From the NCBI GenBank assembly GCA_903844735.1, contig CAIMUX010000047.1, positions 107,862 to 171,861 on the forward strand: a DNA stretch of 64,000 nt, written 5' to 3'. Positions within the stretch are counted from its first letter, which is position 1. Every line of letters begins with the position of its first letter. Of this stretch, positions 23,809 through 60,752 are shown in pieces. The position numbers and the translations under genes are program-made. The stretch is from Candidatus Eiseniibacteriota bacterium. GTDB lineage: Bacteria; Eisenbacteria; RBG-16-71-46; CAIMUX01. The notes under the pieces were generated by a model, which ran no database searches, had not been told where the DNA came from, and worked only from the letters and a program-made list of their open reading frames with translations.

Positions 23809-23879
23809 GAGCATTCGGATCGTGCTCACCTCGGCTCGGGACTCGGATGCACGCGGGTGACACCTCTCAGGTCGGGAAG

Positions 23880-24824: not shown

Positions 24825-25028
24825 GATCCGCTGTGGTGCGATAGGGATCGCGCCCGCGCGCATCGCAGTCCTTGCCACCCGGCTGGCCGGCGGCGGCAGT
24901 CGGTCGTGGATGCGAGGCGCGAGCAGCCCCGGCGACACAGGCGTACGTTTCGTACGTCGAGGAGCCGGGTCAAGCGCAACGAAGCAGACGCGGCCGAACG
25001 CCGTCGCCGGCCCGGGAGGTTTAGGAAG

Positions 25029-27335: not shown

Positions 27336-28610
27336 ATGGGTCGGGTCTGGGTAGTGGTCCGCCAGGAATACCTGAACAAGGTGCGGACCAAGGCATTTCT
27401 CTTCGGGACCTTCGTGGTGCCGCTCCTCTTCGCCGCCATGGGCGTGCTCCCGGCCTACTTCATGAACAAGAGCGTGGAGCAGTCGGGGACCTACGCGGTG
27501 GTCGACGAGACCGGCCTCCTCTTCGGGCCGCTGGGGAAGGCCCTCGACGACAGCTCGAAGACCGGCGAACGCCTCTTCAGTCTGGTGCCGGAACCGGCGA
27601 GCGGACGCAGTCGGGAGGATCTCAAGCGCGATCTGGGTAGCCTCGTGGCCAGAGGCGATCTGGCCGGGTTCTTCCTCGTGCCGGCCGATGCCGTCGAGGG
27701 GGGCGAGGTCGCCTTCGGCGCCACCAGCGTCTCCGACTTCCAGCGTAACGAGTCGATCCACGCTTCGCTCAACGAGGCTGTGCGTGAGGTGCGCATTTCG
27801 CGCACGAAGCTCGACCCGGCCGAGGTGAAGGCGGTGCTTAAGCCGATTCCCCTCTCCACCTTCAAGGTCGGCGAGAAGGGCGAGGTGAAGAAGGATTCCG
27901 GCACCACCTTCATGGTCGCCTACGCCGTAGGCTTTGCCCTCTACCTGATCCTCGCCATTTACGGCGGGATGATGCTGCGCGCCGCCCTCGAGGAGAAGAC
28001 CTCGCGCTCGTCCGAGGTAATGGTAGCCACGATCCGCGCTTCGACGCTGATGGCGGGTAAGATCATGGGGATCGGTCTGGTGGGCTTGACGCAAGTGGCA
28101 ATCTGGGCGGTCCTGATCGTCCTGTTCTCGTCCAGCTCGGCCGCCTTCATGCCGGCGGGTTCGCAGGAGATCCTGGCCGAGATCGGAATCACGCCGGTAA
28201 TGGGGCTCTTCTTCGTGGTTTATTTCCTACTCGGTTTCCTCTTCTATGCCGCCCTTTTCGGCGCGGTCGGCGCCATGGTGAGCAGCGAAACGGAAGCCCA
28301 GCAGGCGCAATGGCCGGTAACGATCCCGCTCTTGGTCGCTTTCATTTTCATGACCATGGCCCTGCGGGATCCGAACGCGCCCCTGGTGCGGATCTTTTCG
28401 GTGATTCCGTTCTTCTCGCCGATTCTGATGACGGTGCGGATCTGCATTGTGACCCCGCCCTGGTGGGAGATCGCGATTTCGTTGATCCTTCTGCTGGTCT
28501 TCATCTGGGGCGCGATGTGGATTGCGGGGCGGATCTTCCGGGTCGGTCTGCTCATGTACGGCAAGCGGCCGACGCTTCCGGAACTGGTGAAATGGATCCG
28601 CTTCGGTTGA
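27336..28610 (+). CDS. ABC-2-type transporter permease (NatB-like)
   Basis: Starts 3 nt after the ATPase stop. N-terminal TM helix, a large soluble loop, then five or more C-terminal TM helices, as in ABC-2 permeases. Confidence 0.8.
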   Translation: MGRVWVVVRQEYLNKVRTKAFLFGTFVVPLLFAAMGVLPAYFMNKSVEQSGTYAVVDETGLLFGPLGKALDDSSKTGERLFSLVPEPASGRSREDLKRDLGSLVARGDLAGFFLVPADAVEGGEVAFGATSVSDFQRNESIHASLNEAVREVRISRTKLDPAEVKAVLKPIPLSTFKVGEKGEVKKDSGTTFMVAYAVGFALYLILAIYGGMMLRAALEEKTSRSSEVMVATIRASTLMAGKIMGIGLVGLTQVAIWAVLIVLFSSSSAAFMPAGSQEILAEIGITPVMGLFFVVYFLLGFLFYAALFGAVGAMVSSETEAQQAQWPVTIPLLVAFIFMTMALRDPNAPLVRIFSVIPFFSPILMTVRICIVTPPWWEIAISLILLLVFIWGAMWIAGRIFRVGLLMYGKRPTLPELVKWIRFG

Positions 28611-31600: not shown

Positions 31601-31861
31601 CTTCCCCTGGCGACCAGCGCCATCGATAGCCAGGGACTCAGCATTCGCCAGGACGCGTACGCGGGCATGGTGTTGGAGGGCGGGAGCGACGCCGTCCGCA
31701 TCGATGCGGCCACCCAGCCCGGCGTTGTCGTTCTCGCCGAACCGGTGCCGGTCAGTCGACTCCGCGCATGCATGCCGGATGGAATCGCCCGGATCTACGA
31801 GTACGGGGTCGGGGACTCGATCGAGCTGGCGCGGGTGGAGGTGCGGACGACCGGTTGGTAA
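28592..31861 (+). CDS. Heparinase II/III-like (polysaccharide-lyase-fold) lipoprotein, about 1089 aa
   Basis: Lipoprotein signal ..LLTVWTSLLLVSC. The N-terminal alpha/alpha-toroid-like region has a Cys cluster (CPQHG..CPWRIDP..CPIGGEWYP). HQSAALALALVLDD and DRLAIGLIKDGVDLLPDLGYP..SLAHNTVTVDE resemble the Hepar_II_III core. It overlaps the permease gene by 19 nt; the ORF-track start at 28310 is rejected. Confidence 0.65.
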   Translation: MDPLRLNGVARPTRCALLASLVLLTVWTSLLLVSCREEPGRSTPGKETGSRLRKTGRTFYTDERIAVGRKNIARAGWGDDLRRRIFETGDSIGGYIGPEYTAADLYAAQTDGSLWLLQPPTTIPRVIDPRASVARCPQHGETVRSVDPNCPWRIDPIAHPYRIQCPIGGEWYPSNRYDQGNLTSGAFPDDGNGFVVDGIRYFPLREYCHMVYGTVVIPTLRSLSQAYLLTGDRRYAHKGCVLLARLATVYPNYGWEGDDPTLENRFDRTYLGPWNNQHPYYAWKRGGLITDCIWECLSLDALAYVYDAFYDYLDDDPDLIRFVRDRGLMVKDGKELRGYIETYILRSGMRAIKAKWVTGNEGHHQSAALALALVLDDHSSRHPNSADLVDYAYFDQGQAAYILVNGLTRDGGGYESPSYNLYNLRFIAVARCMEELRRRHPALYPVQRYPDIFAGPKARALFDYYIDMVQQDHRLPSIGDEGGITPPTRRTGYAPSVLTHENVFAATRYRDPRFAVACTDENGGAVPGELWEPYPEKEIRAIREQHGDTIRRESRFLDGYGVMILESSGSRAKTTLALNYTSLRNHGQADRLAIGLIKDGVDLLPDLGYPVTWDYRKQWDGNSLAHNTVTVDETQPDYWSIRGRGRLFASSAGVHLAVATHDPYPGGLRAGARPVRTFERGVLLVETEGGDPYVVDLFLVDGGEQHDQSWHGMLTRVQDPDLAWVPQARGTLAGPGVVEFAGYTDRWGREHPAGDFPSYLTHVRRATLERPARWRWSSGLAEGDFLDLYLLPLDGPAEVIQATGRSPVWQDRDLDYVILRRRARGGSLSRFLTVLAPGQGRSTALQVELLSQNPLRLEVKHGDTQDRIEFTLGRADPGVPAALVGVRVERTAVGGRKQEIRIGEREAGRGDGYVRSQIVAVDRDHNAIVCRWDGADTGSGAGATAFVSNAVVRLYNEQRSSLWRIEKASRDGSQVRLQLDRTSLAAFGPVSRMEDGIVYLAAGLPLATSAIDSQGLSIRQDAYAGMVLEGGSDAVRIDAATQPGVVVLAEPVPVSRLRACMPDGIARIYEYGVGDSIELARVEVRTTGW

Positions 31862-39438: not shown

Positions 39439-39749
39439 ACGACGGCTTCCTTTCTTCGGTCCTTCGGGATGCGCGGTTGCAGCATCAGGAATGTGAAGAT
39501 CGACTCCTGTTTCAGATCAGCATCCCGCATCACTCTTCTCCTCCGGGACGGTGGTGTGAGCTTTCAAGAAGGATCCTACCGCTTGATAGTACATCCATCG
39601 TGCTACGGGGAGCGTTTCCGTGCCCCGCCGGCCTTCGGATGAGGCGCGGGAGGCATGAGATCCGGAGTTGAACCCGCTGCGGCACGGGAGGGATACTTGC
39701 AGGCGCGGCTTCTTTCGGTCTGTGAGGGCCATCGCCCGAGGGAGGAAAC

Positions 39750-42494: not shown

Positions 42495-42849
42495 TTCCTC
42501 CTGGAAGGGGCCGTGGGTCCGTTCGCGGGGCCGGTCCTCCCCGAACCCTGGTTCTTAGAACCATTCCGAACCGGTCCGACAGGTACCAAACTTCCACCAT
42601 CGGCTGGGAAGCGGTCAATCGCCAGTTTCTTGACTTCGGCAGTTCCCTGACCCCGGGGATCGGGTAGAGTCTCTTCCCACGGCCGCCCCGACCGTTGCAA
42701 CCCCCAGCGGAACCGCCGCGTACAGTTCTCAGGGTGCGAGGGTACGCGGGATGGTAGCCGCAGGCCGGACGGAAGCAGCAGCTCGAACGGAAGCAGCAGG
42801 CCGGACGGAAGCAGGCAGCCCCGGCTGGTTATGAAGCGGAGGTGCAGCC

Positions 42850-44778
42850 ATGGTCATGAGCATAAAGATCGCAACAGCACGGGCCATCGCATCCGCTCTT
42901 ACAGCCTGCCTGGCCGCCTCGGCCGTAGCCGCCCTTCTCACCCTCCTCGCTCCACTCGCTTCCGCCGCCAACCACGGAGCCCAGATTGCCGCCATCGATC
43001 GGATCGCCAGTCAGGGTCTGCGCCGCGAGGTGTTCGTTCTCGACGGTCCCACCGAGGTGCGGATTCGCGCCGAAGGACTGGCCGACCGGCAGGGGACGAA
43101 TTTCCTTGCCTATGGCTGGATTCTCGACCTGACGTCCCGCCATCCCGCCTGGGTCATGGACGCGACCAACGCTGCGTGGGACCGCAAGACCCAGAACTGG
43201 AAGGTCGACGAACGGATGACGCTGCCCGCCGGCATCTACGCTCTGTACTACGCTTCCTATGGCGGCTCTTTCCCGCTGGACAAGGAGATCCGGGTGCTCG
43301 GGATGATCCTGGGACGCTTTGAGTCTTCGGTTGGTCCCAGCGTGAAGTGGAATGAGCACGGCGACGATTCGCTCTGGGGGATCCGTGTCGACGGCATGGG
43401 CGCCGGGTTCCGGCCCGCCAAGGCACCCGTGGAGGCGCCCAGCCCCGATCCCGGCGCTCTCATCCGCTTCTTCGAGCTGCCGAATAACGCGCTCGAGCGG
43501 GAGCGGATCGACCTCTCCCGGCCGGTCGACTTTCGCGTCCGCTTCACCGGTGAGTACGACCGCGGCGTGCGCGCCTTCGCCGACGGCGCCTGGATCACCG
43601 ACCTCTCCACCTACGAGAAGGTCTGGTCCCCGAACTTCGACGATACCGAGCCGGCCGGGGGCGACGCCAAGAACCGGATGTTTCAGGGGACGATTCCGCT
43701 CCGTGCGGGAAGCTATGAATTCACGGTCACCACGGATGGGAGCCACGCGGTCGGAAGCTGGAACGCTTCGCCGCCGTACGACCCGGAGGCTTGGGGCATA
43801 TCCCTCACCCCGGTGCGCGATTCGGATCGGGTTTTTGTGAGCGTGACCGGGGCGGCCGGGCTGCCCGAGCCGGTACTGGCCATTCGCGAGGTCGGTGACG
43901 ACGAGTTGCGACGCGAGCCGTTCGTGGTTCTCCGGCCGGTGCGCCTTTTCGTCACCGCGCTTGGTGAGCGTTCCGGCAAGGGCGAGATGGCCGACTTTGC
44001 GTGGATCGAGCGGACGGGCGACCTCCAGCCGATCTGGGAGATGCGCGAGGAGGACACCGAACCCGCCGGAGGCTCCGCCAAGAACCGCGTCGTCGAGTCG
44101 GTGATCGAGTTGCCGCCCGGGGCCTACGCGCTCTGCTACGCCAGCGACGACTCTCATTCGTACCCGGACTGGAATTCCGAGGCTCCGCGCAATCCCGAGG
44201 CGTGGGGTGTGAGTCTTGCTCCGATCGGGCGGGCCGATCCGAACAGCCCACGCCTGACCGCTCCTTCGGAGGAGCCCGAGATCCCGCAGGTTCCCCGGGT
44301 CCCGTCGAAGCCCGGCAAGCCCGGGACACCGACCCTGCCCCCCGCGCCTTCTTTCCTTCCTCTGTCCCCCGCGGCCGTCGCCGCCCTCATCCGTCCGGGC
44401 GAGCCGCCGGATCCACCCGTGGTCATCGGGCTTACGCGCGTCGGCAGCGATGCCGATCTTTCGCGACGCTTCCGCGTCAGCGCCACGACCAAGTTTCACC
44501 TCGTCGCTCTCGGCGAGGGGACCGAAGAACCGCTTTCCGACCATGGGTGGATCGAGGATGTGCGCTCGGGGAAGGTGATCTGGAAGATGCGCTACCGTGA
44601 TACCCAGCATGCGGGTGGCGCGCGCAAGAACCGGGTTGAGCGGGCTGAAATCACGCTGCCTCAGGGGGAGTATCTTCTCCGGTATGAGACGGATGACTCC
44701 CACGCCTTCGGGGACTGGAATGGAACCCTGCCATCCCAGCCGCATCTTTGGGGCATAAGCCTTGTCGAGGTGAAGTAG
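42850..44778 (+). CDS. Secreted protein built from four copies of an uncharacterised ~130-aa repeat, with a Pro-rich linker before the last copy
   Basis: Signal ..ALLTLLAPLASA. The repeat cores are TEPAGGDAKNRMFQGTIPLRAGSYEFTVTTDGSHAVGSWNASPPYDPEAWGISL; TEPAGGSAKNRVVESVIELPPGAYALCYASDDSHSYPDWNSEAPRNPEAWGVSL; TQHAGGARKNRVERAEITLPQGEYLLRYETDDSHAFGDWNGTLPSQPHLWGISL; and a divergent first copy (..MTLPAGIYALYYASYGG..). Confidence 0.8.
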   Translation: MVMSIKIATARAIASALTACLAASAVAALLTLLAPLASAANHGAQIAAIDRIASQGLRREVFVLDGPTEVRIRAEGLADRQGTNFLAYGWILDLTSRHPAWVMDATNAAWDRKTQNWKVDERMTLPAGIYALYYASYGGSFPLDKEIRVLGMILGRFESSVGPSVKWNEHGDDSLWGIRVDGMGAGFRPAKAPVEAPSPDPGALIRFFELPNNALERERIDLSRPVDFRVRFTGEYDRGVRAFADGAWITDLSTYEKVWSPNFDDTEPAGGDAKNRMFQGTIPLRAGSYEFTVTTDGSHAVGSWNASPPYDPEAWGISLTPVRDSDRVFVSVTGAAGLPEPVLAIREVGDDELRREPFVVLRPVRLFVTALGERSGKGEMADFAWIERTGDLQPIWEMREEDTEPAGGSAKNRVVESVIELPPGAYALCYASDDSHSYPDWNSEAPRNPEAWGVSLAPIGRADPNSPRLTAPSEEPEIPQVPRVPSKPGKPGTPTLPPAPSFLPLSPAAVAALIRPGEPPDPPVVIGLTRVGSDADLSRRFRVSATTKFHLVALGEGTEEPLSDHGWIEDVRSGKVIWKMRYRDTQHAGGARKNRVERAEITLPQGEYLLRYETDDSHAFGDWNGTLPSQPHLWGISLVEVK

Positions 44779-49627: not shown

Positions 49628-51904
49628 ATGAATACGTTCTTTTCGTTCAGGCTGAGGTTCTCGCGGCGGGGCCTCCTGGAGATCCTCCGCGCCCTGCTTT
49701 CCCTGCCCGCGGCGGCGCTGTTTCTGGCGCTTCCCGTGTCTGTGGCGCGCGGGGCGCCCCTGGGGCAGAACGTCCTTTCCCTGGGCACGGCGAGCGGGGC
49801 GTCCGGCACCGAGGTCACTGTGGCGCTCAACCTGGCCAACCAGGACGCCGTGGGGGGGATTCAGCTCGATGTCCGATTCGATCCGACGGTGGTGAGTTTC
49901 ACCGGCGCGGTGATCACCTCGCGGACGGCCGGGATGTCGATCGGGAGCTCCACTCCGGCGGCGGGGCGGCTGCGTATCGTGATGTATTTCGGGGGCGGGG
50001 GCAACGTTGCGGCCGGCACGGGAGCCGTGGCTGATCTCACCTTTCTCTTGGTCGGGACAGGTGGCAGTGCCCTCACGCCTGAGGCGATGGAACTGTCCGA
50101 CCCCACGGGTCAGACGCTTTCTGTGACCGCCACCGGGGGGGAGATCACCGTCATCGGCGGGGCCGAGGCGCTTTCGATAGGGACCGGCAGCGGCGCCAGC
50201 GGTGCCGAAGTGACGGTGCCGCTCGGTTTGCAGAATGCCCAGGCGATCGGCGCGCTACAGCTCGACATCCTCTTCGACCCGGCCGTGGTGAGCTTCACGA
50301 GTGCCGCGATCACCTCGCGTGCAACCGGTATGTCGATTCCGACCTCCACCACGTCCCCGGGACGGCTGCGCGTGGTGATGTACTTCGGTGGCGGAGGCAG
50401 CATTCCGGCGGGCGATGGCGCGGTGGCCAACCTTACGTTTCAAACCATTGGTGCCGCGGGGACCGGATGTGACCTCACCCCGGACGCGGCGGCTCTGTCC
50501 GACCCGAACGCGCAGGCGTTGCCGGTGACAGCCACCGCAGGCCATATCACCGTGACCGGCGGAGGCGACCCGACCGGGGCCTGCTGCGCGTCGGCGGGTA
50601 CCTGCACCCTGGTGACGCAGCCGGGCTGCGCGGCCGGGATCTGGCAGGGCCTGAACACGGCTTGCACTCCGAACCCCTGTCCGCCCGCCCCAGCGGCCGA
50701 CACGCTCTCGGTCGGATCTGGAAGCGGCGCTAGCGGCACCGAAGTGACCGTGCCGCTCGGCCTGGGGAACACCCAGCCGGCCAAGGGGCTTCAGCTCGAC
50801 ATCCGCTTCACCGCATCAGTGGTGAGCTGGGTCCGAGGAACCGCCGCTCCGCGGGTGGGCGGGATGACATTCTCGGCTCAACCCCAGGGAACTGACGGCG
50901 TCCGAATCGTGATGTACTACGCCGATGCCACGACCGTGGCGCCGGGGACCGGGGCCATCGCCAACTTAGTGTTCCGGCTGAATGGCGTCGGCGGCAGCTC
51001 GAGCTCGCTCGCCCTGAGCGGAGTCGTGGTGGCGAACCCGGACGGTCAGCCGATCGTCGTGACCAACCGAGAGGGGCGCCTCGACGTCACGGGAGGACCT
51101 GGCGATCCGACCGGCGCGTGCTGTGCGCCGAGCGGGGCCTGCACGCTGGTGACCCAGGTGGCCTGCACCGCCGGTACCTGGCGCGGTGCGAACACAGCCT
51201 GCGTGCCGAATCCATGCCCGGCTCCGTCGCCGGCCGATACGCTTGCGGTCGGAGGCGGGAGCGGACCCTCCGGCGGGCAGATCACCATTCCCATCGGCCT
51301 GGCGAACCATGTTGCGGTGCGCGGGATCCAGGCGGATATCCGTATCGACCCGGCGGTACTCCGCTTCGAGAGCGGCGCCGCCGCCCCACGCGTCGGGAGC
51401 ATGGTTTTTGCGGCCTCGTCGCCGACCCAGGATCGGGTTCGGATCCTTCTGTACTACGACAACACGAGCACCCTCGCGCCCGGCCGTGGCGCGGTGGCAA
51501 ACCTGGTCTTCAGGATCACCGGGGCGGGCGGGAGCCGGTCGTCTCTGATGGCGGCCGACATCCACATCGCCGACGTGAACAACCAAGAGATCCCGACGGT
51601 AGGGAGTGCCGGGGAGGTTTCGGTGATTGGGGGGGGCGCGCCGCCCGATCTGCAGCTCGCGGTGCTCAAGAATCCGGGGCGGATGCGTACGTTGCAGATC
51701 TTCCTCAGCTCCGATGTGGGACTGGACGCGATGCCCACAGTGGGCCTGTCCGGCGGCGTTGCTGTGCCGTTGACCCAGCTTCCCGGCGTGAACATCTTCC
51801 AGGGGAGTGTCTCCGTGGACGACGGGACGGCGAGTGTGACGGTGCAGGCGACCGGCAGTCACGACGGGGCCACGGGTACGGTCCAGTCCACGGTGACCTT
51901 CTGA
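49628..51904 (+). CDS. Secreted scaffoldin-like protein with four cohesin-like modules and two Cys-rich GACC..PNPCP linker modules
   Basis: Signal ..LLSLPAAALFLALPVSVARG. There are four ~130-aa modules with a cohesin-like pattern, e.g. LSLGTASGASGTEVTVALNLANQDAVGGIQLDVRFDPTVVSF..GRLRIVMYFGG..GAVADLTFLLVG..GEITV. The approximate module spans are 49766-50155, 50156-50560, 50690-51095 and 51225-51625. Linkers are at 50567-50686 and 51104-51220. The ORF-track start at 49490 is rejected. Confidence 0.75.
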   Translation: MNTFFSFRLRFSRRGLLEILRALLSLPAAALFLALPVSVARGAPLGQNVLSLGTASGASGTEVTVALNLANQDAVGGIQLDVRFDPTVVSFTGAVITSRTAGMSIGSSTPAAGRLRIVMYFGGGGNVAAGTGAVADLTFLLVGTGGSALTPEAMELSDPTGQTLSVTATGGEITVIGGAEALSIGTGSGASGAEVTVPLGLQNAQAIGALQLDILFDPAVVSFTSAAITSRATGMSIPTSTTSPGRLRVVMYFGGGGSIPAGDGAVANLTFQTIGAAGTGCDLTPDAAALSDPNAQALPVTATAGHITVTGGGDPTGACCASAGTCTLVTQPGCAAGIWQGLNTACTPNPCPPAPAADTLSVGSGSGASGTEVTVPLGLGNTQPAKGLQLDIRFTASVVSWVRGTAAPRVGGMTFSAQPQGTDGVRIVMYYADATTVAPGTGAIANLVFRLNGVGGSSSSLALSGVVVANPDGQPIVVTNREGRLDVTGGPGDPTGACCAPSGACTLVTQVACTAGTWRGANTACVPNPCPAPSPADTLAVGGGSGPSGGQITIPIGLANHVAVRGIQADIRIDPAVLRFESGAAAPRVGSMVFAASSPTQDRVRILLYYDNTSTLAPGRGAVANLVFRITGAGGSRSSLMAADIHIADVNNQEIPTVGSAGEVSVIGGGAPPDLQLAVLKNPGRMRTLQIFLSSDVGLDAMPTVGLSGGVAVPLTQLPGVNIFQGSVSVDDGTASVTVQATGSHDGATGTVQSTVTF

Positions 51905-51914
51905 GGAGGGCGGG

Positions 51915-53252
51915 ATGAAAATGCAAGCAAGACGAGCCCGTAAGTCCCGGTGCCTCTCGGCCATAGGGTTGGCCCTCGCTCTTCTTGGGGTGGCTTTGGC
52001 CGGAGTGATCACCGGATGCGGCGGGAAGGAGGTCATCCAACCGCCGCCGCCGGCCCAGGCGCCGGTCGTGCAGGTCCTCACGCCGAACGGTGGCGAGAGT
52101 TTCCGGGCCGGAGCGCAAACTGAGATCACCTGGACCGCAACCGATGGAGACACGCCGATGTTGCTGATCTCCGTCGAGTTCAGCCCGGATGGCGGCGCTG
52201 TTTGGCTGCCGGTGGCGGTCGACGACCCGAACGACGGCACTTTCACCTGGGCGGTCCCGGGGATGGCTACCGGGCAGGCGCTCATCCGCGTGACGGCGAC
52301 AGATGGCGTCCATCGGGGCAGCGATGTTTCCGACAACCCCTTCAGCATCAGCAGCATGCCGCCGCCGCCGCCCCAGACGCCGGTCGTGCATGTGCTCACG
52401 CCGAATGGTGGCGAGAGTTTCTTGGCAGGATCGCAGACCGGGATCACCTGGACCGCCACCGACGGAGACACGCAGGTGTTGCTGATCACCATCGAGCTCA
52501 GCCCGGACGGCGGCGCTGTTTGGCTGCCGGTGGCGGTCGACGAGCCGAACGACGGCACCTTCACCTGGGCGGTCCCGGGGACCGCTACCGGGCAGGCGCT
52601 CATTCGCGTGACGGCGACAGATGGCGTCCATCTGGGCAGCGATGTCTCCGACAACCCCTTCAGCATCACCGCAACTCCGCCGCCTGATACGCCGGAGACG
52701 CTCACCGCGAAGGGGTGGACGGCGTTCGAGGCGGGCGATTTTGCTCAGGCGCTCCAGAGATTCGGGGCCGCCATCGCTCTCGACGCGCAGTACGGTCCGG
52801 CCTACACCGGCCGCGGCTGGGTGGAACTGACCCGGGCCACCACGACGGACGCGTTCCGGGCCGCCGTGACGACCTTCGATGCGGCCGTGGCGCGCGGGCA
52901 GACCAGCGCGGATGCGCGCGGCGGGCGCGCGGCGGCGAAGTTGGCTTTGGGTGGCTCCGATCTCGCCGGGGCGGTTCAGGAAGCACAGGCGGCGGTCGCC
53001 GCCTCCCCGACCTTCGTGTTCCCGCACCGGACCAGCTTTGACTACCGGGATCTGCACCTCATCGCGGCCTTTGCCGAGGCGGGGCGCGGCGGCCGCTTCT
53101 CTGCCGCTCGGGACGAGGCCGACCAGGTACAGGCCAGCGGCATCCGTCTTGGCGATCCGCAGACCTGGATCGTGGATGACCTGCGCTACCCGACCTTCGA
53201 GGCCGCGGTGCTGGCCTGGCTTCACAAGATGTCCGCTGCCTTCGCCGGCTGA
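51915..53252 (+). CDS. Lipoprotein with two tandem Ig-like (Kre9/KNH-like) domains and a TPR-like C-terminal half
   Basis: Lipobox ..LAGVITGC; GAGGAGG SD. Two ~105-aa copies of VLTPNGGESF.AG.QT.ITWTATDGDT..LLI..E.SPDGGAVWLPVAVD.PNDGTFTWAVPG.ATGQALIRVTATDGVH.GSDVSDNPFSI. Then AKGWTAFEAGDFAQALQRFGAAIALDAQYGPAYTGRGW, which is TPR-like. Confidence 0.75.
   Translation: MKMQARRARKSRCLSAIGLALALLGVALAGVITGCGGKEVIQPPPPAQAPVVQVLTPNGGESFRAGAQTEITWTATDGDTPMLLISVEFSPDGGAVWLPVAVDDPNDGTFTWAVPGMATGQALIRVTATDGVHRGSDVSDNPFSISSMPPPPPQTPVVHVLTPNGGESFLAGSQTGITWTATDGDTQVLLITIELSPDGGAVWLPVAVDEPNDGTFTWAVPGTATGQALIRVTATDGVHLGSDVSDNPFSITATPPPDTPETLTAKGWTAFEAGDFAQALQRFGAAIALDAQYGPAYTGRGWVELTRATTTDAFRAAVTTFDAAVARGQTSADARGGRAAAKLALGGSDLAGAVQEAQAAVAASPTFVFPHRTSFDYRDLHLIAAFAEAGRGGRFSAARDEADQVQASGIRLGDPQTWIVDDLRYPTFEAAVLAWLHKMSAAFAG
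52041..52669 (+). repeat. Tandem duplication (two units of about 315-320 bp) inside the lipoprotein gene
   Basis: Unit 1 is about 52041-52352 and unit 2 about 52358-52669. My hand alignment of the encoded copies shows 16 mismatches in ~105 residues. Confidence 0.85.
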
Positions 53253-53259
53253 TTCCACG

Positions 53260-56200
53260 ATGGAGGAGACGATGATGCGTGCGTTCTTTTGGATCCGGAC
53301 GGCTCGGATCGCCGCGGCCTCGGCCCTCGTGCTGACCTGCTTGTTCTGCGTTACGGAGTCGCCGGCGCTGGGCGTGACGCCGGGGGGCGAATCGATGCGC
53401 GTGCCCTTGGCGGCCGGTGCGGGAAAGGTCGATCCTTGGCTCCGGCTGGCCCTCGCGACGCCCGGCCACAGCGTCGCGCGCCTGATGCCGGTGGCGCGCA
53501 ACATCGAGATCGCGGGCTCCTCGCTCGACGATCTGCGCTACCCGGTCCTTCTCCGTACCACTCTGGACGACGCGGAACTCGTCGCGCGGGGCGTGGTGCC
53601 TGACTCGCGGGCCGGTGACATCGTGACCGCGACTCTCACGCCGGGCCAGTTGGGCATGCTTGCCGCCGACCCCGCTGTCTCATTGATCGAGGCGTCCCGC
53701 TGGCTCCCGAGCGCTCTGGATGTCTCGGTTCCGGAGACCCGGGCCGACCTGGTGAATAACGTCGGCGATCCACCCGCCGGCTACACCGGGCGTGGCGTCA
53801 TCGTGGGACTGATCGACAGCGGGATCGACCATACCCACGCGGACTTCCAGAAGCCCGATGGGACAAGCCGCATCCTTTACATCTGGGATCACCAGCGGGA
53901 GGGTGCCGCCCCCGCGGGCTACGGCTATGGCTACGAATATACCAAGGCGATGATCGATGGCGGCCAGGCGAACCAGCATGTCGACCAGGTGGCCCACGGC
54001 ACGCACTGCGCCGGTATCGCGGCGGGCGACGGCAGCTCGCTGGCCAACCACCCCTACCGCGGCGTGGCCTGGGAGGCCGACATCATTGCCGTGCGCAACG
54101 GCGGAAGCTGCGACGTGTTCTGCTACGGAGGCGGCGTGCCGCCCTGGGACACCGGCGGCTACCTGTATGGTCAAAACGGTGGCACCAAGGGTAGCATCGA
54201 CGGCCTCAACTACATGATCGCGAAGGCAAAGGCTCTGGGCAAGCCTCTGGTCGTGAACCAGAGCCAGGGCGTGGGCAAGGGGCCGCACGACGGCACCACC
54301 CTCTTCGAGCAGGCGTACGATCAGCTCGTTACCGATCCGCAAAAGAACCTCATCATCTGCATTGCCGCCGGGAACGAGCAACAGATGGCCTCCCACGGAC
54401 AGGTCGCTGTGCCCGCGGGCGGGAGCGCGAGCTTCACGCTCAGCAAGACGTGGAGCTCGACGCAGGGAGACGTCTCCAATTTTTATATGGATTTCGAGTG
54501 CTGGTACCCGGCGGGAAGGCAGTTCCGCTGGGAAGTGCGGGCACCCGGCGGGACCACCCTCCAGATCCCGGCCTCGGTTCCGGCTAGCCAGTATCCGTAC
54601 CAATGGACCGCGCGCCCGGACACGGTGGTCTACTGGACCGCGACGCAGCATCCGGCGAACAACCAGGGCTATGCGAACTTCGTCATTCAGAACTGGCGTT
54701 CCGGGATCGAGACCGGCACCTGGACCGTGCGCGCCATCGACGAGGGGGGAACCGGCGGCACGGTCGATCTGTACGTCGAGCGCAACCAGTACACGGCGAA
54801 GGTGGTGCAGGGGCTCAGCCTCGACAACATCGTGAGCATGCCCGGGACCGCCGACCAGGTGATCACGGTGGCGTCCTACAACTCGAAACTCTCCTGGATC
54901 GCCAATGACGGTCAGCCCTACCAAGCGACGAACGAAAACCCGGTGGGCGACATCAGCACGTTCAGCGGATGGGGCCCGCGTCGGGATGGCGCGGCCAAGC
55001 CGGATCTGGCGGCACCGGGTGCCTGGGTCATGTCGGTCCTTGCGACCGGCAGCCAGCCCGACCCGCGTCAGGTCGGCCCCGGAGGCAAGCACAAGATCAT
55101 CTCCGGCACGTCCATGGCGGCCCCGCATGTCACCGGGACCGTTGCCCTGATGCTGCAGAAGAAGCCCGACCTGCTCGCCGCCGAGGTGAAGTCGATTCTC
55201 CAGCAGACGGCGCGGCAGGACGGCTTCACCGGCGCGGTGCCGAACGCGAAGTGGGGCAGCGGGAAGCTCGACGCCAAGGCCGCGGTCGACGCGGTACGTC
55301 TTGGCGGGAGCTGTGCTACAACCCCGGGCGACGCCAACCAGGATCACGTGGTCAATATCCTCGATGTCGTGGTTACGGTGAACGACATTCTGGGGGTGAC
55401 ACCGCTGGACGAGTCGGGGCGCGGCTGCGCGGACGTCGACGGCAGCAACTCCGTCAGCATCCCCGATGTCGTGTTGATCGTGAACCTGATACTGCAACCG
55501 AGCGCCCCCGCGCCCCAGGTGGAAGACGGTGCGAAGGCCGCCCCGCTCGCGTGGGAACGCGAGCTCACCCGCGATGCGTTGCGCTTCCGGGTGGACGGCG
55601 CCCGGGTGGGCGGGCTGGAGATGTCGGTGATCCTCGCACGCGGGTGGCGCCTGGGCTCACAAGCGCCTGCGGATGGAGCTGTCGCTGCCGGTGTGGCCGC
55701 TCCGGGTGCAGGCGCCGCCGGCGCCGGCATGGCCGCCGCCGATGTCCGGATCATCGGAGCGGCCTTTGGTGTCTCGGTCCAGGCCCACGAGGAAAACGGC
55801 GTTTGCCGGCTAGTGGCCTACGCCCCTTCGGGCGGAGCTCTCGGATCCGGTCCCGTGACGCTGGAGATTCCGCTGGTACAGATCTTCGACGGAGGCGTCG
55901 GTCCCGAGGGGATCGAGGTGGCGAGGGTCATCGCCGCCGACCCGGTGGGGCGGCCGCTGGTGCTCGCTTCGACGCCGAGTCTCGACGGCGACGACGGCGA
56001 TGCCGGGGACGCGCGCGTGCTCCTGCCCGCCACCGCCGTGCCGAACCCTACCTACGGGGTTTCGCGCGTGCGTTACCGGCTCTGGGACGATGGGCCGGTG
56101 ACGATTACCGTCTTCGATGCGGCCGGTCGCTCCGTACGTGATCTTTGGGATGGGATGCAGACGGGCGGCAGCCACGAACTCGCCTGGGACGGTCGCGATG

Positions 56201-56292
56201 ACCGTGGTGTGCGCGTTTCGGCGGGCGCTTATTTTGTCCGCGTGCGGACGGCCTCCTCCGAGGTCAGCCGGAAACTACTGGTGGTTCGGTGA
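53260..56292 (+). CDS. Secreted subtilisin-like serine protease (S8) with a dockerin-like module and a FlgD-Ig/T9SS-type C-terminal domain
   Basis: Signal ..AAASALVLTCLFCV. Catalytic triad contexts VGLIDSGIDHTH (Asp), HGTHCAGIAAG (His), SGTSMAAPHVTG (Ser). Dockerin-like duplicated Ca loops GDANQDHVVNILDVVVTVNDIL..ADVDGSNSVSIPDVVLIVNLIL (about 55327-55497). Tail ..VPNPTYG..VTITVFDAAGRSVRDLW..LAWDGRDDRGVRVSAGAYFVRV (about 56020-56289). The ORF-track start at 52879 is rejected. Confidence 0.85.
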   Translation: MEETMMRAFFWIRTARIAAASALVLTCLFCVTESPALGVTPGGESMRVPLAAGAGKVDPWLRLALATPGHSVARLMPVARNIEIAGSSLDDLRYPVLLRTTLDDAELVARGVVPDSRAGDIVTATLTPGQLGMLAADPAVSLIEASRWLPSALDVSVPETRADLVNNVGDPPAGYTGRGVIVGLIDSGIDHTHADFQKPDGTSRILYIWDHQREGAAPAGYGYGYEYTKAMIDGGQANQHVDQVAHGTHCAGIAAGDGSSLANHPYRGVAWEADIIAVRNGGSCDVFCYGGGVPPWDTGGYLYGQNGGTKGSIDGLNYMIAKAKALGKPLVVNQSQGVGKGPHDGTTLFEQAYDQLVTDPQKNLIICIAAGNEQQMASHGQVAVPAGGSASFTLSKTWSSTQGDVSNFYMDFECWYPAGRQFRWEVRAPGGTTLQIPASVPASQYPYQWTARPDTVVYWTATQHPANNQGYANFVIQNWRSGIETGTWTVRAIDEGGTGGTVDLYVERNQYTAKVVQGLSLDNIVSMPGTADQVITVASYNSKLSWIANDGQPYQATNENPVGDISTFSGWGPRRDGAAKPDLAAPGAWVMSVLATGSQPDPRQVGPGGKHKIISGTSMAAPHVTGTVALMLQKKPDLLAAEVKSILQQTARQDGFTGAVPNAKWGSGKLDAKAAVDAVRLGGSCATTPGDANQDHVVNILDVVVTVNDILGVTPLDESGRGCADVDGSNSVSIPDVVLIVNLILQPSAPAPQVEDGAKAAPLAWERELTRDALRFRVDGARVGGLEMSVILARGWRLGSQAPADGAVAAGVAAPGAGAAGAGMAAADVRIIGAAFGVSVQAHEENGVCRLVAYAPSGGALGSGPVTLEIPLVQIFDGGVGPEGIEVARVIAADPVGRPLVLASTPSLDGDDGDAGDARVLLPATAVPNPTYGVSRVRYRLWDDGPVTITVFDAAGRSVRDLWDGMQTGGSHELAWDGRDDRGVRVSAGAYFVRVRTASSEVSRKLLVVR

Positions 56293-56347
56293 GCCGGCGT
56301 GGCCGGCGCCGCCGACTCTCGATGCTCTGCCTGAAAGGGGAGACACC

Positions 56348-58867
56348 ATGAAGCGCTGGATCCATGTCCTTACACTGGTGCTGGTCTTCGCGGCGGCGCT
56401 TCCCGCCCTGGCGGCGCGACTGCGCGACATTCCGGTGACGCTCCACCAGCCCGACGGCACGGCTGTGCCCTGTTTCATCTCCGGCGATGAGTATTTCCGC
56501 TGGGCTCACGATGCCAGCGGTTTTGTTATCATCGACGATCCGGCCGACGGGCGGCTCGTCTACGCCGCGGCGCACGACGGCCGATGGGTGCCGACCGCAT
56601 GGGCCGTCGGCTCCGTCGACCCGGCCGCGGTCGGGCTCACTCCACGCCTCCCGATTCCGATGGAGGACGTGCGCCGCCGGATCGGGCTGTTCCGCGACCA
56701 CGCGCCAAAGAACCGCCCCCTCGACGACGGCCGCCCGAAGACCGGCCAGTTCAACAACATCGTCATCTTCGTACGTTTCCAGGACCAGACGGAGTTCCCC
56801 GAGCAGGTCAGCCATTACGGCGACATGTTCAACTCCACGGGTGCCGGAGCGAACTCGATGACGAACTACTACCAGGAAGTCTCGTACGGGCAGTTGTCGG
56901 TCACGACCAGTTTCTTCCCGCAGTCGAGCGCCACGGTCCTCTCGTACCGGGACTCCCACCAACGCAGTTATTTCTCGCCGTGGTCGCCCACGAATAGTGC
57001 GGGGTACGACACCACCAACTACGGAATCGAAGGCGCGCAACGCCTGCACACGATGCTGCAGGCCGCGGTCAATGCCATCGCGGCGCAGGTGCCGGCCGGC
57101 CTCAACATCGACCGGGACAACGATGGGTTCGTGGACAACGTCTGCTTCATCGCTCGCGGGACATCCGATACCTGGTACGACTGGCTCTGGCCTCACATGT
57201 GGCAACTCATGGAAGGCTACGAGGCCTCCATCAACGGAAGGCAAGTGAGCACCTACAACTTCCAGTTGGCGGACATTCTGAATCTGTCCGCGGTCGGCAA
57301 TGGGGTTCTCTGCCACGAGATGTTCCACTCGCTCGGCGCGCCGGACCTCTATCGGTACGAGGAAGGAAACGGCACCTTCTTCCCGGTCGGGGCGTGGGAC
57401 CTGATGGAGGACAACCGCAACCCGCCGCAGCACATGTTGACCTACATGAAGTACCGCTACGGTGGTTGGATCTCCTCCCTCCCGGTGATCAGCAGCAGCG
57501 GGACGTACACCCTGCAGCCGGTGACCTCATCCACCGACAACTGCTACCGGATCAACTCGCCCAACACGACCGGCGAGTACTTTGTCGTGGAGTACCGGAG
57601 CCGGGCATCTTCCGACTTCGAGTACCAAGTGCCCGGTTCCGGCCTCATCGTCTACCGGATCAACACCGCCGTGACCGACGGGACCGGCAACATGTTTGGC
57701 CCGCCCGACGAGGTCTATGTGTACTGTCCCAACGGCACCAACACCGAGACCGGTTTGAAGGATAACGCATTTTACAACGCGGCGGTGGGGCGAACTTCCA
57801 TTACCGACCTGACCAGCCCCTCGGCATTCCTCGCCGACGGTCAACCGGGTGGGCTCAATATCACCGCCATCGGCCCGATCGATGACACCATGACCTTCAC
57901 GGTGACGATCAGCGGGGGCTCGGTCTCCTGCGCTACGCGCGCGGGCGATGCTACCGGCGACAGTCAGGTCAACGTCACCGACCTTGTTGCCACCGTGAAC
58001 GACATCCTGCTTACGCACCCGCTGGCACCCGGTGCCCGGGCCTGCGCCGATCTGATGGAGCCCATCGGGACGGTGAACATCCAGGATCTCCTGGCCATCG
58101 TCGACTTGATCCTCCACCCCGGTGCGCCGGGGCTGACGGCGGCATCGGAGCCGGGTGATTCGACCTCTCCGCCGTTGTCGTTGCTCGCTGAGCGGACCGC
58201 GGGAGAGTGGCGTCTGACCTTTGATGGGGGCATCGTGGCGGGAATACAGGTGGCATTGCCCTTTTCGGCGATGCCGTCGTCGGCCCCGCGGCTCGAGGGG
58301 GGTGCGCCCGGCGTGAACGTTGGTTGGGACTTCCAGGGTGGGAAGCTCCGGCTCTTGGCCTATGCGTCCGGCGGCGGCGCGCTCGCGCCCGGGGCATGTA
58401 CGTTGGTGTTGCCGGTGCTCTCGTCCGCGGAAGTCATTCCCGACGGCGTGGTGGATGACGAAGATCGGGTGCTTGACGGGGCGCTGCGACTCTCCTCGGC
58501 TCCCGCCCTGCTCTTCGCTAACGCCGAAGGGCACGCCCTGCCGTTCGTCTTCACGGCGGCCGCCGGTTCATCGACGTCTGCCTCGTCCGCGCAGGTCATC
58601 ACCATCGCGCCAAACCCCACCCGAGGGACGGTGCGGTTGCGGCTCGCCGGCATGCCTCCCGGGGCCGTTATCCGCGTGCGGGCGTGCGACGCCGCAGGCC
58701 GGGTCGTGGCCGGGTTCACGGCTCCCCCCTCCGCCGGCGATGGCTCGGTCGTGGTCGAGTGGGACGGTCGGGACCTCCACGGCACGCCTCTGCCGACCGG
58801 CGTGTACTTCCTGATTCCCGAGGGCGGCGCCCGGGGGAGATGGACGAAGCTCTTGATGGTTCGCTAG
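56348..58867 (+). CDS. Secreted M6-family (immune inhibitor A-like) metalloprotease with a dockerin-like module and a FlgD-Ig/T9SS-type C-terminal domain
   Basis: Signal MKRWIHVLTLVLVFAAALPALA. M6-type N-region (QFNNIVIFVRFQDQ..; NYYQEVSYGQLS) and zinc site LCHEMFHSLGAPDLY (HExxH at 57314-57328). Dockerin-like GDATGDSQVNVTDLVATVNDIL..GTVNIQDLLAIVDLIL (about 57944-58110). Tail ..IAPNPTRGTVRLRL..VEWDGRDLHGTPLPTGVYFL. The ORF-track start at 56117 is rejected. Confidence 0.8.
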   Translation: MKRWIHVLTLVLVFAAALPALAARLRDIPVTLHQPDGTAVPCFISGDEYFRWAHDASGFVIIDDPADGRLVYAAAHDGRWVPTAWAVGSVDPAAVGLTPRLPIPMEDVRRRIGLFRDHAPKNRPLDDGRPKTGQFNNIVIFVRFQDQTEFPEQVSHYGDMFNSTGAGANSMTNYYQEVSYGQLSVTTSFFPQSSATVLSYRDSHQRSYFSPWSPTNSAGYDTTNYGIEGAQRLHTMLQAAVNAIAAQVPAGLNIDRDNDGFVDNVCFIARGTSDTWYDWLWPHMWQLMEGYEASINGRQVSTYNFQLADILNLSAVGNGVLCHEMFHSLGAPDLYRYEEGNGTFFPVGAWDLMEDNRNPPQHMLTYMKYRYGGWISSLPVISSSGTYTLQPVTSSTDNCYRINSPNTTGEYFVVEYRSRASSDFEYQVPGSGLIVYRINTAVTDGTGNMFGPPDEVYVYCPNGTNTETGLKDNAFYNAAVGRTSITDLTSPSAFLADGQPGGLNITAIGPIDDTMTFTVTISGGSVSCATRAGDATGDSQVNVTDLVATVNDILLTHPLAPGARACADLMEPIGTVNIQDLLAIVDLILHPGAPGLTAASEPGDSTSPPLSLLAERTAGEWRLTFDGGIVAGIQVALPFSAMPSSAPRLEGGAPGVNVGWDFQGGKLRLLAYASGGGALAPGACTLVLPVLSSAEVIPDGVVDDEDRVLDGALRLSSAPALLFANAEGHALPFVFTAAAGSSTSASSAQVITIAPNPTRGTVRLRLAGMPPGAVIRVRACDAAGRVVAGFTAPPSAGDGSVVVEWDGRDLHGTPLPTGVYFLIPEGGARGRWTKLLMVR

Positions 58868-59381
58868 CCAGGACCGCGTAACGGGGTTGTTCGCCGACGG
58901 GTTCCGTCACCGATCCGATGGGGCCCATCCTTGCATGATGCACGGTGGACGGGCTTCGCACACGCACCCTGCGAGAGGCTACTTATCAGGCCGAGCCCTT
59001 CCTTCCGACCCCTACGCGCGATCGTGCCCATCGTGTCATTCCGGCCGATTCCGGGTCAATTGCCCCAACTACGACTCGGTCGCTTCCCGGTCAGCACCGG
59101 GCCGCAGACCGAGCCTTCACTCTCACTCTCCCGTGTTCCTTGCCGTGCTTCAGGTTGGGCGTTGCGTAGGACCGCTCGCTCTTGGCCTCGATGAAGCCTG
59201 AACGGCGGCACGCCGGTTGCCCCATCCATCCTTGGGCGGCTTCGATCGAGCCGATTCGGGGCGGTCAAGCTCAACCCCCGGAGCGTCCGGCCCGATACAT
59301 GCAACAACCTTTGCGGGGAAGACGGCCCTGGGTATCCGGGGTGCGGCGACCAGGCCAGGAGACACAGTGTTCACCACCGAG

Positions 59382-60320
59382 ATGACACGATCGCACGGCA
59401 GGATCCTGATTGTGGAGGATGAAGATGTCCTCCAGACGGTCCTGAAGTACCAACTGGAGCAGGCCGGGTACGAGGTCGAGGTCGCCGGCGATGGCCTGGA
59501 AGGGCTGAAGGCGGTGGAAGCGAACCCGCCCGACCTTATCCTGATGGATGTCATGATGCCGGGAGTGGACGGGAACGAGGCCTGCCATCGACTCAAGTCC
59601 TGCCAGCGCACGCGGCAGATCCCGATCATCATGCTCACGGCGATGGCCGGAGCGGACGACAAGATCCGCGGCCTTGATCAAGGTGCTAACGACTACATCA
59701 CAAAGCCCTTCGAGCGGAAGGAACTGCTGGCGCGGGTCGGCAATCTTCTCGAGTGGGGGCGGCTCCAGCGCGACTCCAATCCGCTCACCGGCCTGCCGGG
59801 CAACATCAGCATTGAGGCCGAGCTGAGCCGTCGGATCGAGGAGCAACTGCCGTTCGTCTTCATGTATGCAGATCTCGACAATTTCAAGCCGTTCAACGAC
59901 TTCTACAGCTACCAGAAGGGTGACCAGGCGATCCGTCTGGTGGCTCTTCTTCTGCAGAGAGTGGTGGAGCGGGAAGGAAGCCCAGGCGACTTCGTGGGTC
60001 ACATCGGCGGCGATGACTTCGTGATGATCCTGGACGCCGAGCGCGCCCGCCGCGTCGGGGACGACTTCGTCCGCGAGTTCGATTCTGAGATTCCTGAGTT
60101 GTACAGCAAGACCGATCGGGCTCGGGGCTTCACGCAGGTGTTGAACCGCAAGGGAGAGATCGAGCGGTACCCGATCATGACTGTGACCATTGCCGCGGTC
60201 TCCAACGAGGCAAAGAGCTTCACGCACGTGGCGCAGGTCTCTGACATTGCCGCCGAGTTGAAGCACCTTGGAAAGCAGCACGAGGGGAGCGTCATCGTCT
60301 GGGACCGCCGCGAGTCCTGA
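59382..60320 (+). CDS. Response regulator: receiver domain fused to a GGDEF-family domain with a GGDDF active-site motif
   Basis: REC: ILIVEDEDV..PDLILMDVMMPGVDG..ITKPF. GGDEF-like: PLTGLPGN..FMYADLDNFKPFNDFYSYQKGDQAI..FVGHIGGDDFVMIL. No RxxD I-site in front of GGDDF (the sequence is SPGDFVGHI). An alternative GTG start lies at 59367. Confidence 0.85.
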   Translation: MTRSHGRILIVEDEDVLQTVLKYQLEQAGYEVEVAGDGLEGLKAVEANPPDLILMDVMMPGVDGNEACHRLKSCQRTRQIPIIMLTAMAGADDKIRGLDQGANDYITKPFERKELLARVGNLLEWGRLQRDSNPLTGLPGNISIEAELSRRIEEQLPFVFMYADLDNFKPFNDFYSYQKGDQAIRLVALLLQRVVEREGSPGDFVGHIGGDDFVMILDAERARRVGDDFVREFDSEIPELYSKTDRARGFTQVLNRKGEIERYPIMTVTIAAVSNEAKSFTHVAQVSDIAAELKHLGKQHEGSVIVWDRRES

Positions 60321-60353: not shown

Positions 60354-60752
60354 GTGGATCGCAAGCGAATTCTGGTCGTCGACGATGAGATCTACATCGT
60401 TCACATTCTCGAATTCACCCTCACCATGGAGGGGTACGAGGTTCTGACCGCGGCCGACGGGGAAGAGGCCCTGCGGCGGCTGGAGCAGGACCGCCCCGAT
60501 CTGGTGGTGCTCGACATCATGATGCCGAAGGTGGACGGCTACGAGGTGCTTCGTCGCATCCGGGCCGACGAGGAGTTCCGGCAACTGCCGGTGATTCTCC
60601 TGTCGGCGAAGGGGCGGCCCATCGACCGCGACACCGGCCTGGAGATCGGTGCCGATGACTATATCGTGAAGCCGTTCAGCCCGCGGCGGTTGTTGGAGAA
60701 GATCCAGGATCTCTTGGAGCGGGCAAAGCTGAGCCAAGTCTCTAACTACTAG
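60354..60752 (+). CDS. Stand-alone CheY-like response regulator receiver protein
   Basis: ILVVDDEIYIV..PDLVVLDIMMPKVDGYEVL..LSAKG..ADDYIVKPF. GTG start. Confidence 0.85.
   Translation: MDRKRILVVDDEIYIVHILEFTLTMEGYEVLTAADGEEALRRLEQDRPDLVVLDIMMPKVDGYEVLRRIRADEEFRQLPVILLSAKGRPIDRDTGLEIGADDYIVKPFSPRRLLEKIQDLLERAKLSQVSNY

Follow-up and report, generated by a model that had tools for sequence, protein, structure and literature searches.

Can four adjacent genes, in which a protein built of cohesin modules stands beside two peptidases that carry dockerins, form a system that holds proteases at the surface of a diderm bacterium? The question is raised by a locus in a 64-kb stretch of a Candidatus Eiseniibacteriota genome (here called the window; all coordinates are positions in it). 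The four genes, G1 to G4, were proposed in an initial annotation to lie on one strand, and an open reading frame (ORF) scan confirms them as a tightly packed + strand group at 49628-58867, with intergenic gaps of 10, 7 and 55 bp. G1 encodes a secreted cohesin protein, G2 a lipoprotein, and G3 and G4 peptidases of the S8 and M6 families. BamA and TamB are also encoded in the window, and the organism is therefore a diderm. We consider it probable that the conserved operon encodes a system by which a diderm of the Eisenbacteria lineage displays proteases through cohesins and dockerins: the locus is real and well conserved, and the mechanism, read from sequence, is plausible.

The four cohesin-like modules proposed for G1 are genuine cohesins. 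The protein matches the Pfam Cohesin model (PF00963) in four stretches at 134.2 bits (cut-off 24.1), and its orthologues, with one to five cohesins per protein, score 28.6-92.6 bits. Added to this is the predicted fold of module 4, which was modelled alone with AlphaFold2 (all models described here are of monomers): the model has a predicted local distance difference test score (pLDDT) of 92 and the nine-strand jelly-roll beta-sandwich of a cohesin. Its top Foldseek matches are type I cohesins whose crystal structures include a dockerin (template modelling score, TM, 0.85; root mean square deviation, rmsd, 1.7 Å); the matches to 6kge_A and 2xdh have TM 0.83-0.85 and rmsd 1.7-2.4 Å, and cohesins of Clostridium perfringens are also amongst the structures found. 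Along the protein, an N-terminal signal peptide is followed by the four cohesins, two Cys-rich linkers that lie between them and a C-terminal domain that is conserved. The linker is a mini-module of 39 residues with six cysteines (DPTGACCAxxGxCxLxxQxxCxxGxWxGxNTxCxPNPCP), for which the Pfam scan gave no family; short matches to the motif occur in unrelated secreted proteins, namely an S8 peptidase, a protein of the FGE-sulfatase type, a PKD protein and an M4 peptidase.

G3 and G4 each end in the same three-part tail, made up of a dockerin, a cohesin-like module (X) and a type IX secretion system (T9SS) sorting domain of type A; over their whole length the two tails align with E = 7e-31. The dockerins had been placed at 55327-55497, which is exact, and at 57944-58110, which is right except that our mapping extends the end to 58117. 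In G3 the match to Dockerin_1 (PF00404) is above the cut-off (25.3 bits against 22.9), the two Ca loops are DANQDHVVNILD and DVDGSNSVSIPD, and three helices are predicted with a pLDDT of about 95; the best matches in the PDB include the dockerin of XynY (2ccl_B, E = 3e-4) and the double dockerin of an S8 peptidase (8x39_A). The G4 segment is accepted as a dockerin homologue because its tail aligns to that of G3 and because it, too, matches the Clostridium thermocellum XynY dockerin (2ccl_B, E = 2e-3). Canonical Ca-loop residues are kept in the dockerin repeats of most of the relatives described below.

The last part of the tail had been read as an FlgD-type domain that might serve as an anchor, a view that has to be revised. 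The C-terminal domain (CTD) of G3 does match Pfam FlgD_ig (39.9 bits, cut-off 27), but it also exceeds the cut-off of the T9SS sorting model TIGR04183 (25.4 bits against 23). In Foldseek the model of the tail matches CTD-type domains of PorU, PorZ and FlgD, plus one structure with cohesin and FN3 domains; global superpositions of the three-domain tail are meaningless (rmsd 15-24 Å), and the search is informative for the CTD and the cohesin+FN3 match only. The CTD of G4 is below both thresholds (25.2 bits for FlgD_ig, 13.5 bits for TIGR04183) and aligns to the CTD of G3. The tails called FlgD-type are in fact T9SS type A sorting domains, and as such export signals that are normally cleaved, not simple anchors.

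Between dockerin and CTD lies the X module, which, like the C-terminal domain of G1, is an addition to the earlier anatomy. It comprises 130-145 residues and is not a mere linker. An hhalign comparison of a profile of X from 20 tails with a profile of 29 cohesin modules gives 96.3%, with E = 1.7e-9 over 106 columns, compared with 7% or less for control alignments of X with the CTD, with immunoglobulin-like (Ig) domains and with the G1 C-terminal domain; the AlphaFold2 model of the G3 tail has nine strands in this region. In X-Doc dyads, X modules stiffen and support the dockerin. Here, the module may give the dockerin the same kind of support, or it may present another site for docking. In a rival reading, the real partner of the dockerin would be X itself, acting either in cis, as a latch that caps the dockerin or keeps the enzyme latent, or in trans, to give head-to-tail polymers; in that case the cohesins of G1, no longer the only scaffold, would vie with X for the dockerins or lengthen the chain. 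Apart from the cohesin-like profile, what speaks for such an arrangement is that the X hidden Markov model matches a cohesin fragment in one related locus (L017), that the order dockerin, X, CTD holds for every one of the 15 cargo tails that were aligned and for about 50 representatives from the database, that only some 14 residues link dockerin to X, and that the tail model, in which two loops are disordered, still has a predicted TM score of 0.65, as would be compatible with a fixed disposition of dockerin and X. We nevertheless think it unlikely that X is the true partner, given that it has diverged much further than the cohesins of G1, to the point of failing the Pfam Cohesin model, and that the constant presence of a multi-cohesin gene next door would be left unexplained.

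The enzymes that carry these tails are secreted peptidases whose active sites appear to be intact. G3 matches Pfam Peptidase_S8 at 145.5 bits (cut-off 21.8), and the subtilisin triad read from it at the outset holds, the catalytic Asp, His, Asn and Ser being kept in nine orthologues. The M6 (InhA-like) assignment of G4 is upheld by NCBIfam TIGR03296 (M6 domain; 138.1 bits, cut-off 110.8), the Pfam model Peptidase_M6 (PF05547) giving 18.7-20.2 bits, below its cut-off of 22; the sequence HEMFHSLGAPD, an instance of the HEXXHXXGXXD motif, is invariant in six G4 orthologues. It is on account of this conservation that both peptidases look active.

Co-conservation of the genes in relatives, on which the initial annotation had made its proposal depend, is found in several candidate phyla. 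When related loci were collected by homology to G1 or to its C-terminal domain, 14 further distinct loci were obtained, each with a cohesin protein, a TPR-like (tetratricopeptide repeat-like) lipoprotein and at least one cargo protein with the dockerin-X-CTD tail. The cohesin protein ends in the same C-terminal domain in 14/14, the case of L014 being a tblastn match without recovery in the ORF scan. The loci span Eisenbacteria, whose metagenome-assembled genomes (MAGs) are the closest named relatives, Gemmatimonadales (L012), Krumholzibacteriia (L013), a dolphin-oral MAG (L011) and further MAGs. The gene set has thus been inherited together across distant lineages. In loci of the Eisenbacteria type, TsaD is followed in turn by the cohesin protein, the lipoprotein, the S8 and/or M6 peptidase, a response regulator with a GGDEF domain (RR-GGDEF), a response regulator (RR) and PriA. 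The cargo may be S8 alone, M6 alone, both, or S8 together with a BNR/Sortilin propeller, and always bears the dockerin tail. That unrelated cargo families have been swapped in and out, and always with this tail, speaks more strongly than anything else at hand for a joint action of cohesin and dockerin here. The cohesins, too, have been duplicated inside the scaffold and have changed place between G1 and G2; copies that share a protein are often almost identical, a sign of recent tandem duplication. A scheme in which each dockerin type has its own cohesin type was rejected: one locus (L003) has both types of cargo and no cohesin of the module 4 type.

It should be noted that, as the loci were found through G1 homology, much of the co-occurrence is inherited synteny and not independent association. 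One could therefore suppose that there is no pairing at all, the modules being generic beta-sandwich spacers and Ca-binding linkers that lie side by side through shared locus ancestry. This can hardly be credited, in view of the exchange of S8, M6 and BNR propeller genes at the locus, each with a dockerin, of the duplication and movement of the cohesins, and of the retention of canonical Ca-loop residues by the dockerins of most relatives.

The range of cargo was explored further by an exhaustive search of representative proteins with a profile of dockerin plus X, which gave 930 matches at E <= 1e-3, of which 23 reach E <= 1e-10; a word-index search with the G3 tail gave one full-length relative, its other matches being to the CTD only. 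Forty-nine representatives have the full tail. Amongst them are 13 S8, four M6 and three trypsin-like proteins (20/49 peptidases), one Kazal-type protease inhibitor, one Sortilin-like protein and one CBM9 protein; Dockerin_1 is detected in 44/49 (E <= 1e-4) and Por_Secre_tail in 27/49. The absence of glycoside hydrolases (GHs) from the locus, pointed out in the initial annotation, extends to these relatives, no Pfam GH domain being found in any of the 49, and Pfam finds neither a GH nor a carbohydrate-binding module (CBM) in G1-G4. The description of the cargo as proteases stands for the most part, with the qualification that relatives add propellers of the BNR/Sortilin type. In two loci of the Eisenbacteria type such a protein of about 1,100 residues is a third dockerin-tagged cargo encoded upstream of the cohesin gene (L006:6503-9838 and L008:5290-8715); its match to the F510_1955 glycosylhydrolase family, at 55 bits, is far below the cut-off of 175. 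As to the inhibitor, cellulosomes include dockerin-bearing serpins, to which a Kazal-type serine protease inhibitor with a dockerin-X-CTD tail offers a parallel.

How the scaffold might be held at the cell concerns G2 and the C-terminal domain of G1. G2 had been described as a lipoprotein with duplicated Ig-like domains and a TPR half. The first two elements are borne out, by a lipobox, VITGC (residues 31-35, 52005-52019; pattern match), with equivalents in eight orthologues, and by two stretches matching Pfam Big_7 (43.2 bits, cut-off 24.1). In four other distinct loci (L001/L007, L003/L004, L005 and L014) the second Ig domain is replaced by a cohesin, and in L006 and L008 Ig domains of the G2 type are fused to the cohesin protein, a link of the Rosetta-stone type between G1 and G2. 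In several G2 orthologues, acidic residues directly follow the lipid-modified Cys; these presumably recall the export signal of Bacteroidota surface lipoproteins, and are taken as a lead only.

The C-terminal domain of G1, here 'KNPGR', is the best-conserved part of that protein. It is present in all orthologues, always at the extreme C-terminus, with an aromatic last residue in all but one (L013, which has Leu). It has no Pfam or NCBIfam match, and hhalign finds no profile similarity to cohesin, X module or CTD; hhalign values of 0.1-0.3% led us to reject both a cohesin and a type A CTD as its identity. Used as a query, its profile retrieves no more than two small proteins, each of them a frameshift fragment of this same system (contigs L016 and L017). 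There the genes of the system are fragmented, the cohesin being split from the KNPGR domain and, in L017, the S8 gene being in pieces; probably they reflect frameshift errors in the assemblies and are not real small proteins. The domain may be a new sorting or anchoring domain.

Taken together, these elements suggest the following scheme. The peptidases would cross the inner membrane by Sec and then the outer membrane by a route of the T9SS type that recognises the CTD. Outside the cell, the dockerins of G3 and G4 would bind the cohesins of G1 with Ca2+ and, in relatives, the cohesin borne by G2. G1 would be retained at the surface through the KNPGR domain and the G2 lipoprotein. Peptidases of different mechanism would in this way be clustered at the surface, the likeliest purpose being digestion of extracellular protein with the products kept near the cell.

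A number of observations weigh against this display scheme. First, the pairing of cohesin and dockerin in G1-G4 is deduced from the modules and from models of single chains. Both G1 and G3 pass the cohesin and dockerin profile thresholds, respectively, that had been proposed as a check, whereas the G4 dockerin, accepted by homology only, does not: scanned alone it scores 19.5 bits against the cut-off of 22.9, and only through its first repeat. The duplicated Ca loop ascribed to each peptidase is thus fully present in G3, but in G4, where the first loop is kept, the second, ADLMEPIGTVNIQD (also read as DLMEPIGTVNIQD), is degenerate, a variant that is common to the M6 orthologues. The window's own G2 has no cohesin, and all TPR matches of G2 in Pfam are sub-threshold, so that the TPR half of the earlier description is to be read as TPR-like. 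No T9SS machinery (SprA/Sov, PorV, PorU, GldKLMN) was found within the 64-kb window, which is all of the genome that was examined. Finally, G1 has no CTD, lipobox, SLH (S-layer homology) domain or sortase signal that Pfam, NCBIfam or hhalign can recognise, and the S8 peptidase is a conserved orthologue rather than one of the changing members of a large set of cargo proteins, which would also fit a dedicated processing role. Each of the last two points leads to an alternative.

A scaffold that lacks a recognisable domain for outer-membrane export or sorting might stay in the periplasm while its cargo is exported. The complex would then be periplasmic, G1 capturing dockerins before export, whether to keep the enzymes inactive and in order for the T9SS or to be co-exported by piggyback, and there would be no stable surface scaffold. 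It is in keeping with this that G1 has a Sec signal only, whereas the cargo of this diderm does bear the CTD, and that G2 weakly resembles PilW, BamD and Tgl, which are periplasm-facing TPR lipoproteins (all matches sub-threshold). Dockerins, however, require Ca2+, and the family is known from extracellular settings. The acidic residues behind the lipidated Cys of several G2 orthologues would, if the resemblance noted above is a true one, also tell against a periplasmic location, and the invariant beta-sandwich at the very C-terminus of G1 looks like a sorting or anchoring domain. We therefore regard a purely periplasmic complex as decidedly unlikely.

Alternatively, the assembly may be real but dedicated to processing or maturing proteins that the cell itself secretes or bears on its surface, or to envelope turnover, and not to nutrition. 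Evidence for this includes the conservation of the single S8 orthologue (across phyla, 33-57% identity over the greater part of its sequence; in the closest locus, 83%), the fixed position of the locus between TsaD and PriA, and the minimal form with one cohesin and one protease seen in four loci (L009, L011-L013); moreover, a processing role has been proposed for cellulosomal S8 peptidases (PMC12484212). Yet the lineage of the window has expanded the cohesins, up to four or five, and has added an unrelated M6 peptidase, and the tail also occurs on trypsin-like peptidases, the Kazal inhibitor and the propeller, which looks more like a general display platform. A role confined to processing appears to us quite improbable.

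The display system that we favour is to be compared first with the clostridial cellulosome, as exemplified by CipA of C. thermocellum. In both, a non-catalytic secreted protein with tandem cohesins is accompanied by enzymes with duplicated Ca-loop dockerins, and the likeness extends to the superposition of module 4 on type I cohesins and to the alignment of the dockerins with that of XynY. The present locus differs in that its cargo consists of peptidases only, that its scaffold bears no CBM and GHs are absent, and that the host is a diderm; in that neither SLH nor LPXTG is matched (Pfam, NCBIfam), a lipoprotein partner and cargo tails of the T9SS type being found instead; and in that the dockerin lies inside the protein, ahead of a cohesin-like module. 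By the usual definition, then, a multi-cohesin scaffold and dockerin-bearing enzymes are present, and carbohydrate-active enzyme (CAZyme) cargo or CBM and an SLH or sortase anchor are not. As it has no CAZymes, CBM, SLH or sortase anchor, the G1-G4 system does not count strictly as a cellulosome, although it plausibly works like one.

Cohesins and dockerins are also put to non-cellulolytic use in the toxin complexes of C. perfringens, and a non-cellulosomal cohesin is known from A. fulgidus (PDB 2xdh). The principle serves other substrates in the amylosome of R. bromii (PMC4611034) and in the mucinolysome of Limousia (PMC12997984); mucinolysome genomes encode 3-6 dockerin-bearing peptidases (PMC12997984). 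Unlike the present case, the amylosome, the mucinolysome and the C. perfringens complexes belong to Firmicutes, with a cargo made up mostly of CAZymes or toxins, and 2xdh comes from an archaeon; not one of these assemblies is protease-centred, linked to the T9SS or encoded in a single conserved operon.

The initial annotation held the combination of scaffold and protease cargo to be no described system, which went too far. Producers of cellulosomes are known to have S8 and cysteine peptidases tagged with dockerins, and a C. thermocellum S8 peptidase with a double dockerin (dDoc_0689, PDB 8X39/8X3A) binds the cell-bound scaffoldin ScaD (PMC12484212). There, as here, an S8 peptidase is tethered by dockerins, and it is proposed to be surface-anchored and not part of the main enzyme complex (PMC12484212). 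It is, on the other hand, an accessory of a Gram-positive CAZyme cellulosome, with tandem dockerins and without a cohesin-like module, a T9SS tail or an adjacent scaffold gene. The closest precedent is Candidatus Stygibacter (Cloacimonadota), for which a cellulosome-like assembly has been proposed that has a T9SS CTD and, as cargo, S8 and C25 peptidases (PMC8542988). This is likewise an uncultivated diderm of the FCB (Fibrobacteres-Chlorobi-Bacteroidetes) type with dockerins on S8/S53 and C25 peptidases and a multi-cohesin scaffold, a T9SS-type CTD is likewise invoked for surface attachment, and the case is likewise one of bioinformatic inference only. Its CTD, however, is on a scaffold of 3,755 aa with CBMs, and its cargo includes GH18 and GH57; in the Eisenbacteria locus the CTD is on the cargo, which also bears the cohesin-like module, and the scaffold is small, free of CBMs and encoded in a compact operon with a lipoprotein. 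Since dockerin-tagged peptidases and a T9SS-linked Cloacimonadota system have already been reported, the kind of system is known as such, and what is described here is a variant.

The comparison with T9SS cargo proper is of a different nature. In the gingipains of P. gingivalis, a type A CTD is cleaved by PorU and the cargo is linked to anionic lipopolysaccharide, A-LPS (PMC4804311, PMC8545088), and the T9SS has been reported for the FCB superphylum (PMC11205867). G3 and G4 resemble gingipains as secreted peptidases ending in a type A CTD, and the tail model matches the CTDs of PorU and PorZ; the difference is that known T9SS cargo is retained through A-LPS and not through cohesin-dockerin modules. 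It is possible, though we hold it to be doubtful, that the dockerin-X-CTD tail, the cohesin-KNPGR protein and the TPR-like lipoprotein together form a new means of retaining T9SS cargo at the surface outside Bacteroidota, in which capture by cohesin and dockerin takes the place of A-LPS, X chains cargo to cargo and KNPGR is a new sorting or anchoring signal. Our literature search found no paper joining Eisenbacteria with dockerins or the T9SS, and none with a pair of dockerin and cohesin-like module upstream of a CTD.

If the display system is as proposed, the cohesin-dockerin principle would extend from Gram-positive degraders of carbohydrate to a protease-centred operon in diderm, uncultivated phyla of soil and sediment, and cohesin-dockerin assembly would be connected to export of the T9SS type. 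The compactness of the operon, with four genes, six cohesin-type modules and two dockerins, makes it a tractable test case for how extracellular proteolysis is kept near the cell. It would also offer orthogonal cohesin-dockerin pairs for protein engineering, and draws attention to two conserved parts, the KNPGR domain and the TPR-like lipoprotein. The features of the operon are collected in Table 1.

Table 1. Genes and modules of the G1-G4 operon, with their positions in the window.
Feature	Position	Strand	Description or evidence
G1	49628..51904	+	Secreted scaffold protein, 758 aa; signal peptide read from sequence
G1 cohesin module 1	49763..50161	+	Pfam Cohesin, mapping
G1 cohesin module 2	50162..50563	+	Pfam Cohesin, mapping
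G1 six-Cys linker mini-module, copy 1	50567..50683	+	DPTGACC...PNPCP; read from sequence; kept in orthologues
G1 cohesin module 3	50696..51097	+	Pfam Cohesin, mapping
G1 six-Cys linker mini-module, copy 2	51104..51220	+	Kept in orthologues
G1 cohesin module 4	51233..51634	+	Separate sequence cluster; AlphaFold2 and Foldseek
G1 'KNPGR' C-terminal domain	51641..51901	+	87 aa, LKNPGR...TVTF; invariant; seven-strand beta-sandwich predicted
G2	51915..53252	+	Lipoprotein, 445 aa
G2 Big_7 Ig domains	52062-52352, 52380-52670	+	Pfam
G2 TPR-like C-terminal domain	52689-53249	+	Sub-threshold TPR matches; kept in every locus
G3	53260..56292	+	Secreted S8 peptidase, 1010 aa; tail of dockerin, cohesin-like module and T9SS CTD
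G3 dockerin	55327..55497	+	Two repeats of Ca loop plus helix
G3 X module	55543..55980	+	Divergent cohesin-like beta-sandwich, low-complexity insert
G3 sorting domain	56020..56289	+	T9SS type A (FlgD_ig-like); TIGR04183, FlgD_ig, Foldseek
G4	56348..58867	+	Secreted M6 (InhA-like) metallopeptidase, 839 aa; tail as in G3
G4 catalytic domain	about 56762-57658	+	M6; HEMFHSLGAPD at 57314-57346
G4 dockerin	57944..58117	+	Second Ca loop degenerate
G4 X module	58172..58561	+	Cohesin-like; tail homology, hhalign
G4 sorting domain	58595..58864	+	Homologous to G3 CTD

The surroundings of the operon are housekeeping genes, with TsaD upstream and RR-GGDEF, RR and PriA downstream. The GC content of the locus resembles that of the remainder of the window (the window as a whole has about 67%) and the synteny with related loci is ancestral, for which reasons horizontal acquisition of the locus was rejected. 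Directly 3' of the operon lie the RR-GGDEF gene (59217-60320) and the single-domain response regulator (60354-60752), a placement that is shared by the related loci L001 and L003-L006. Within the 64 kb, dockerins are confined to G3 and G4. Of two large ORFs related to polysaccharides, at 28061-31861 (+) and 36562-39516 (-), one has a Heparinase II/III-like and one a DUF4861 domain; in a profile scan neither has a dockerin. A PRiA4_ORF3-like protein (22756-23808) is encoded between two long ORFs without a Pfam match, and the region as a whole (21065-25283) may be a small foreign or mobile patch amid housekeeping DNA. Lastly, an ORF of 647 residues at 42835-44778, all of whose Pfam matches are sub-threshold, has counterparts of 639-645 aa at the same position in L001 and L003-L005.

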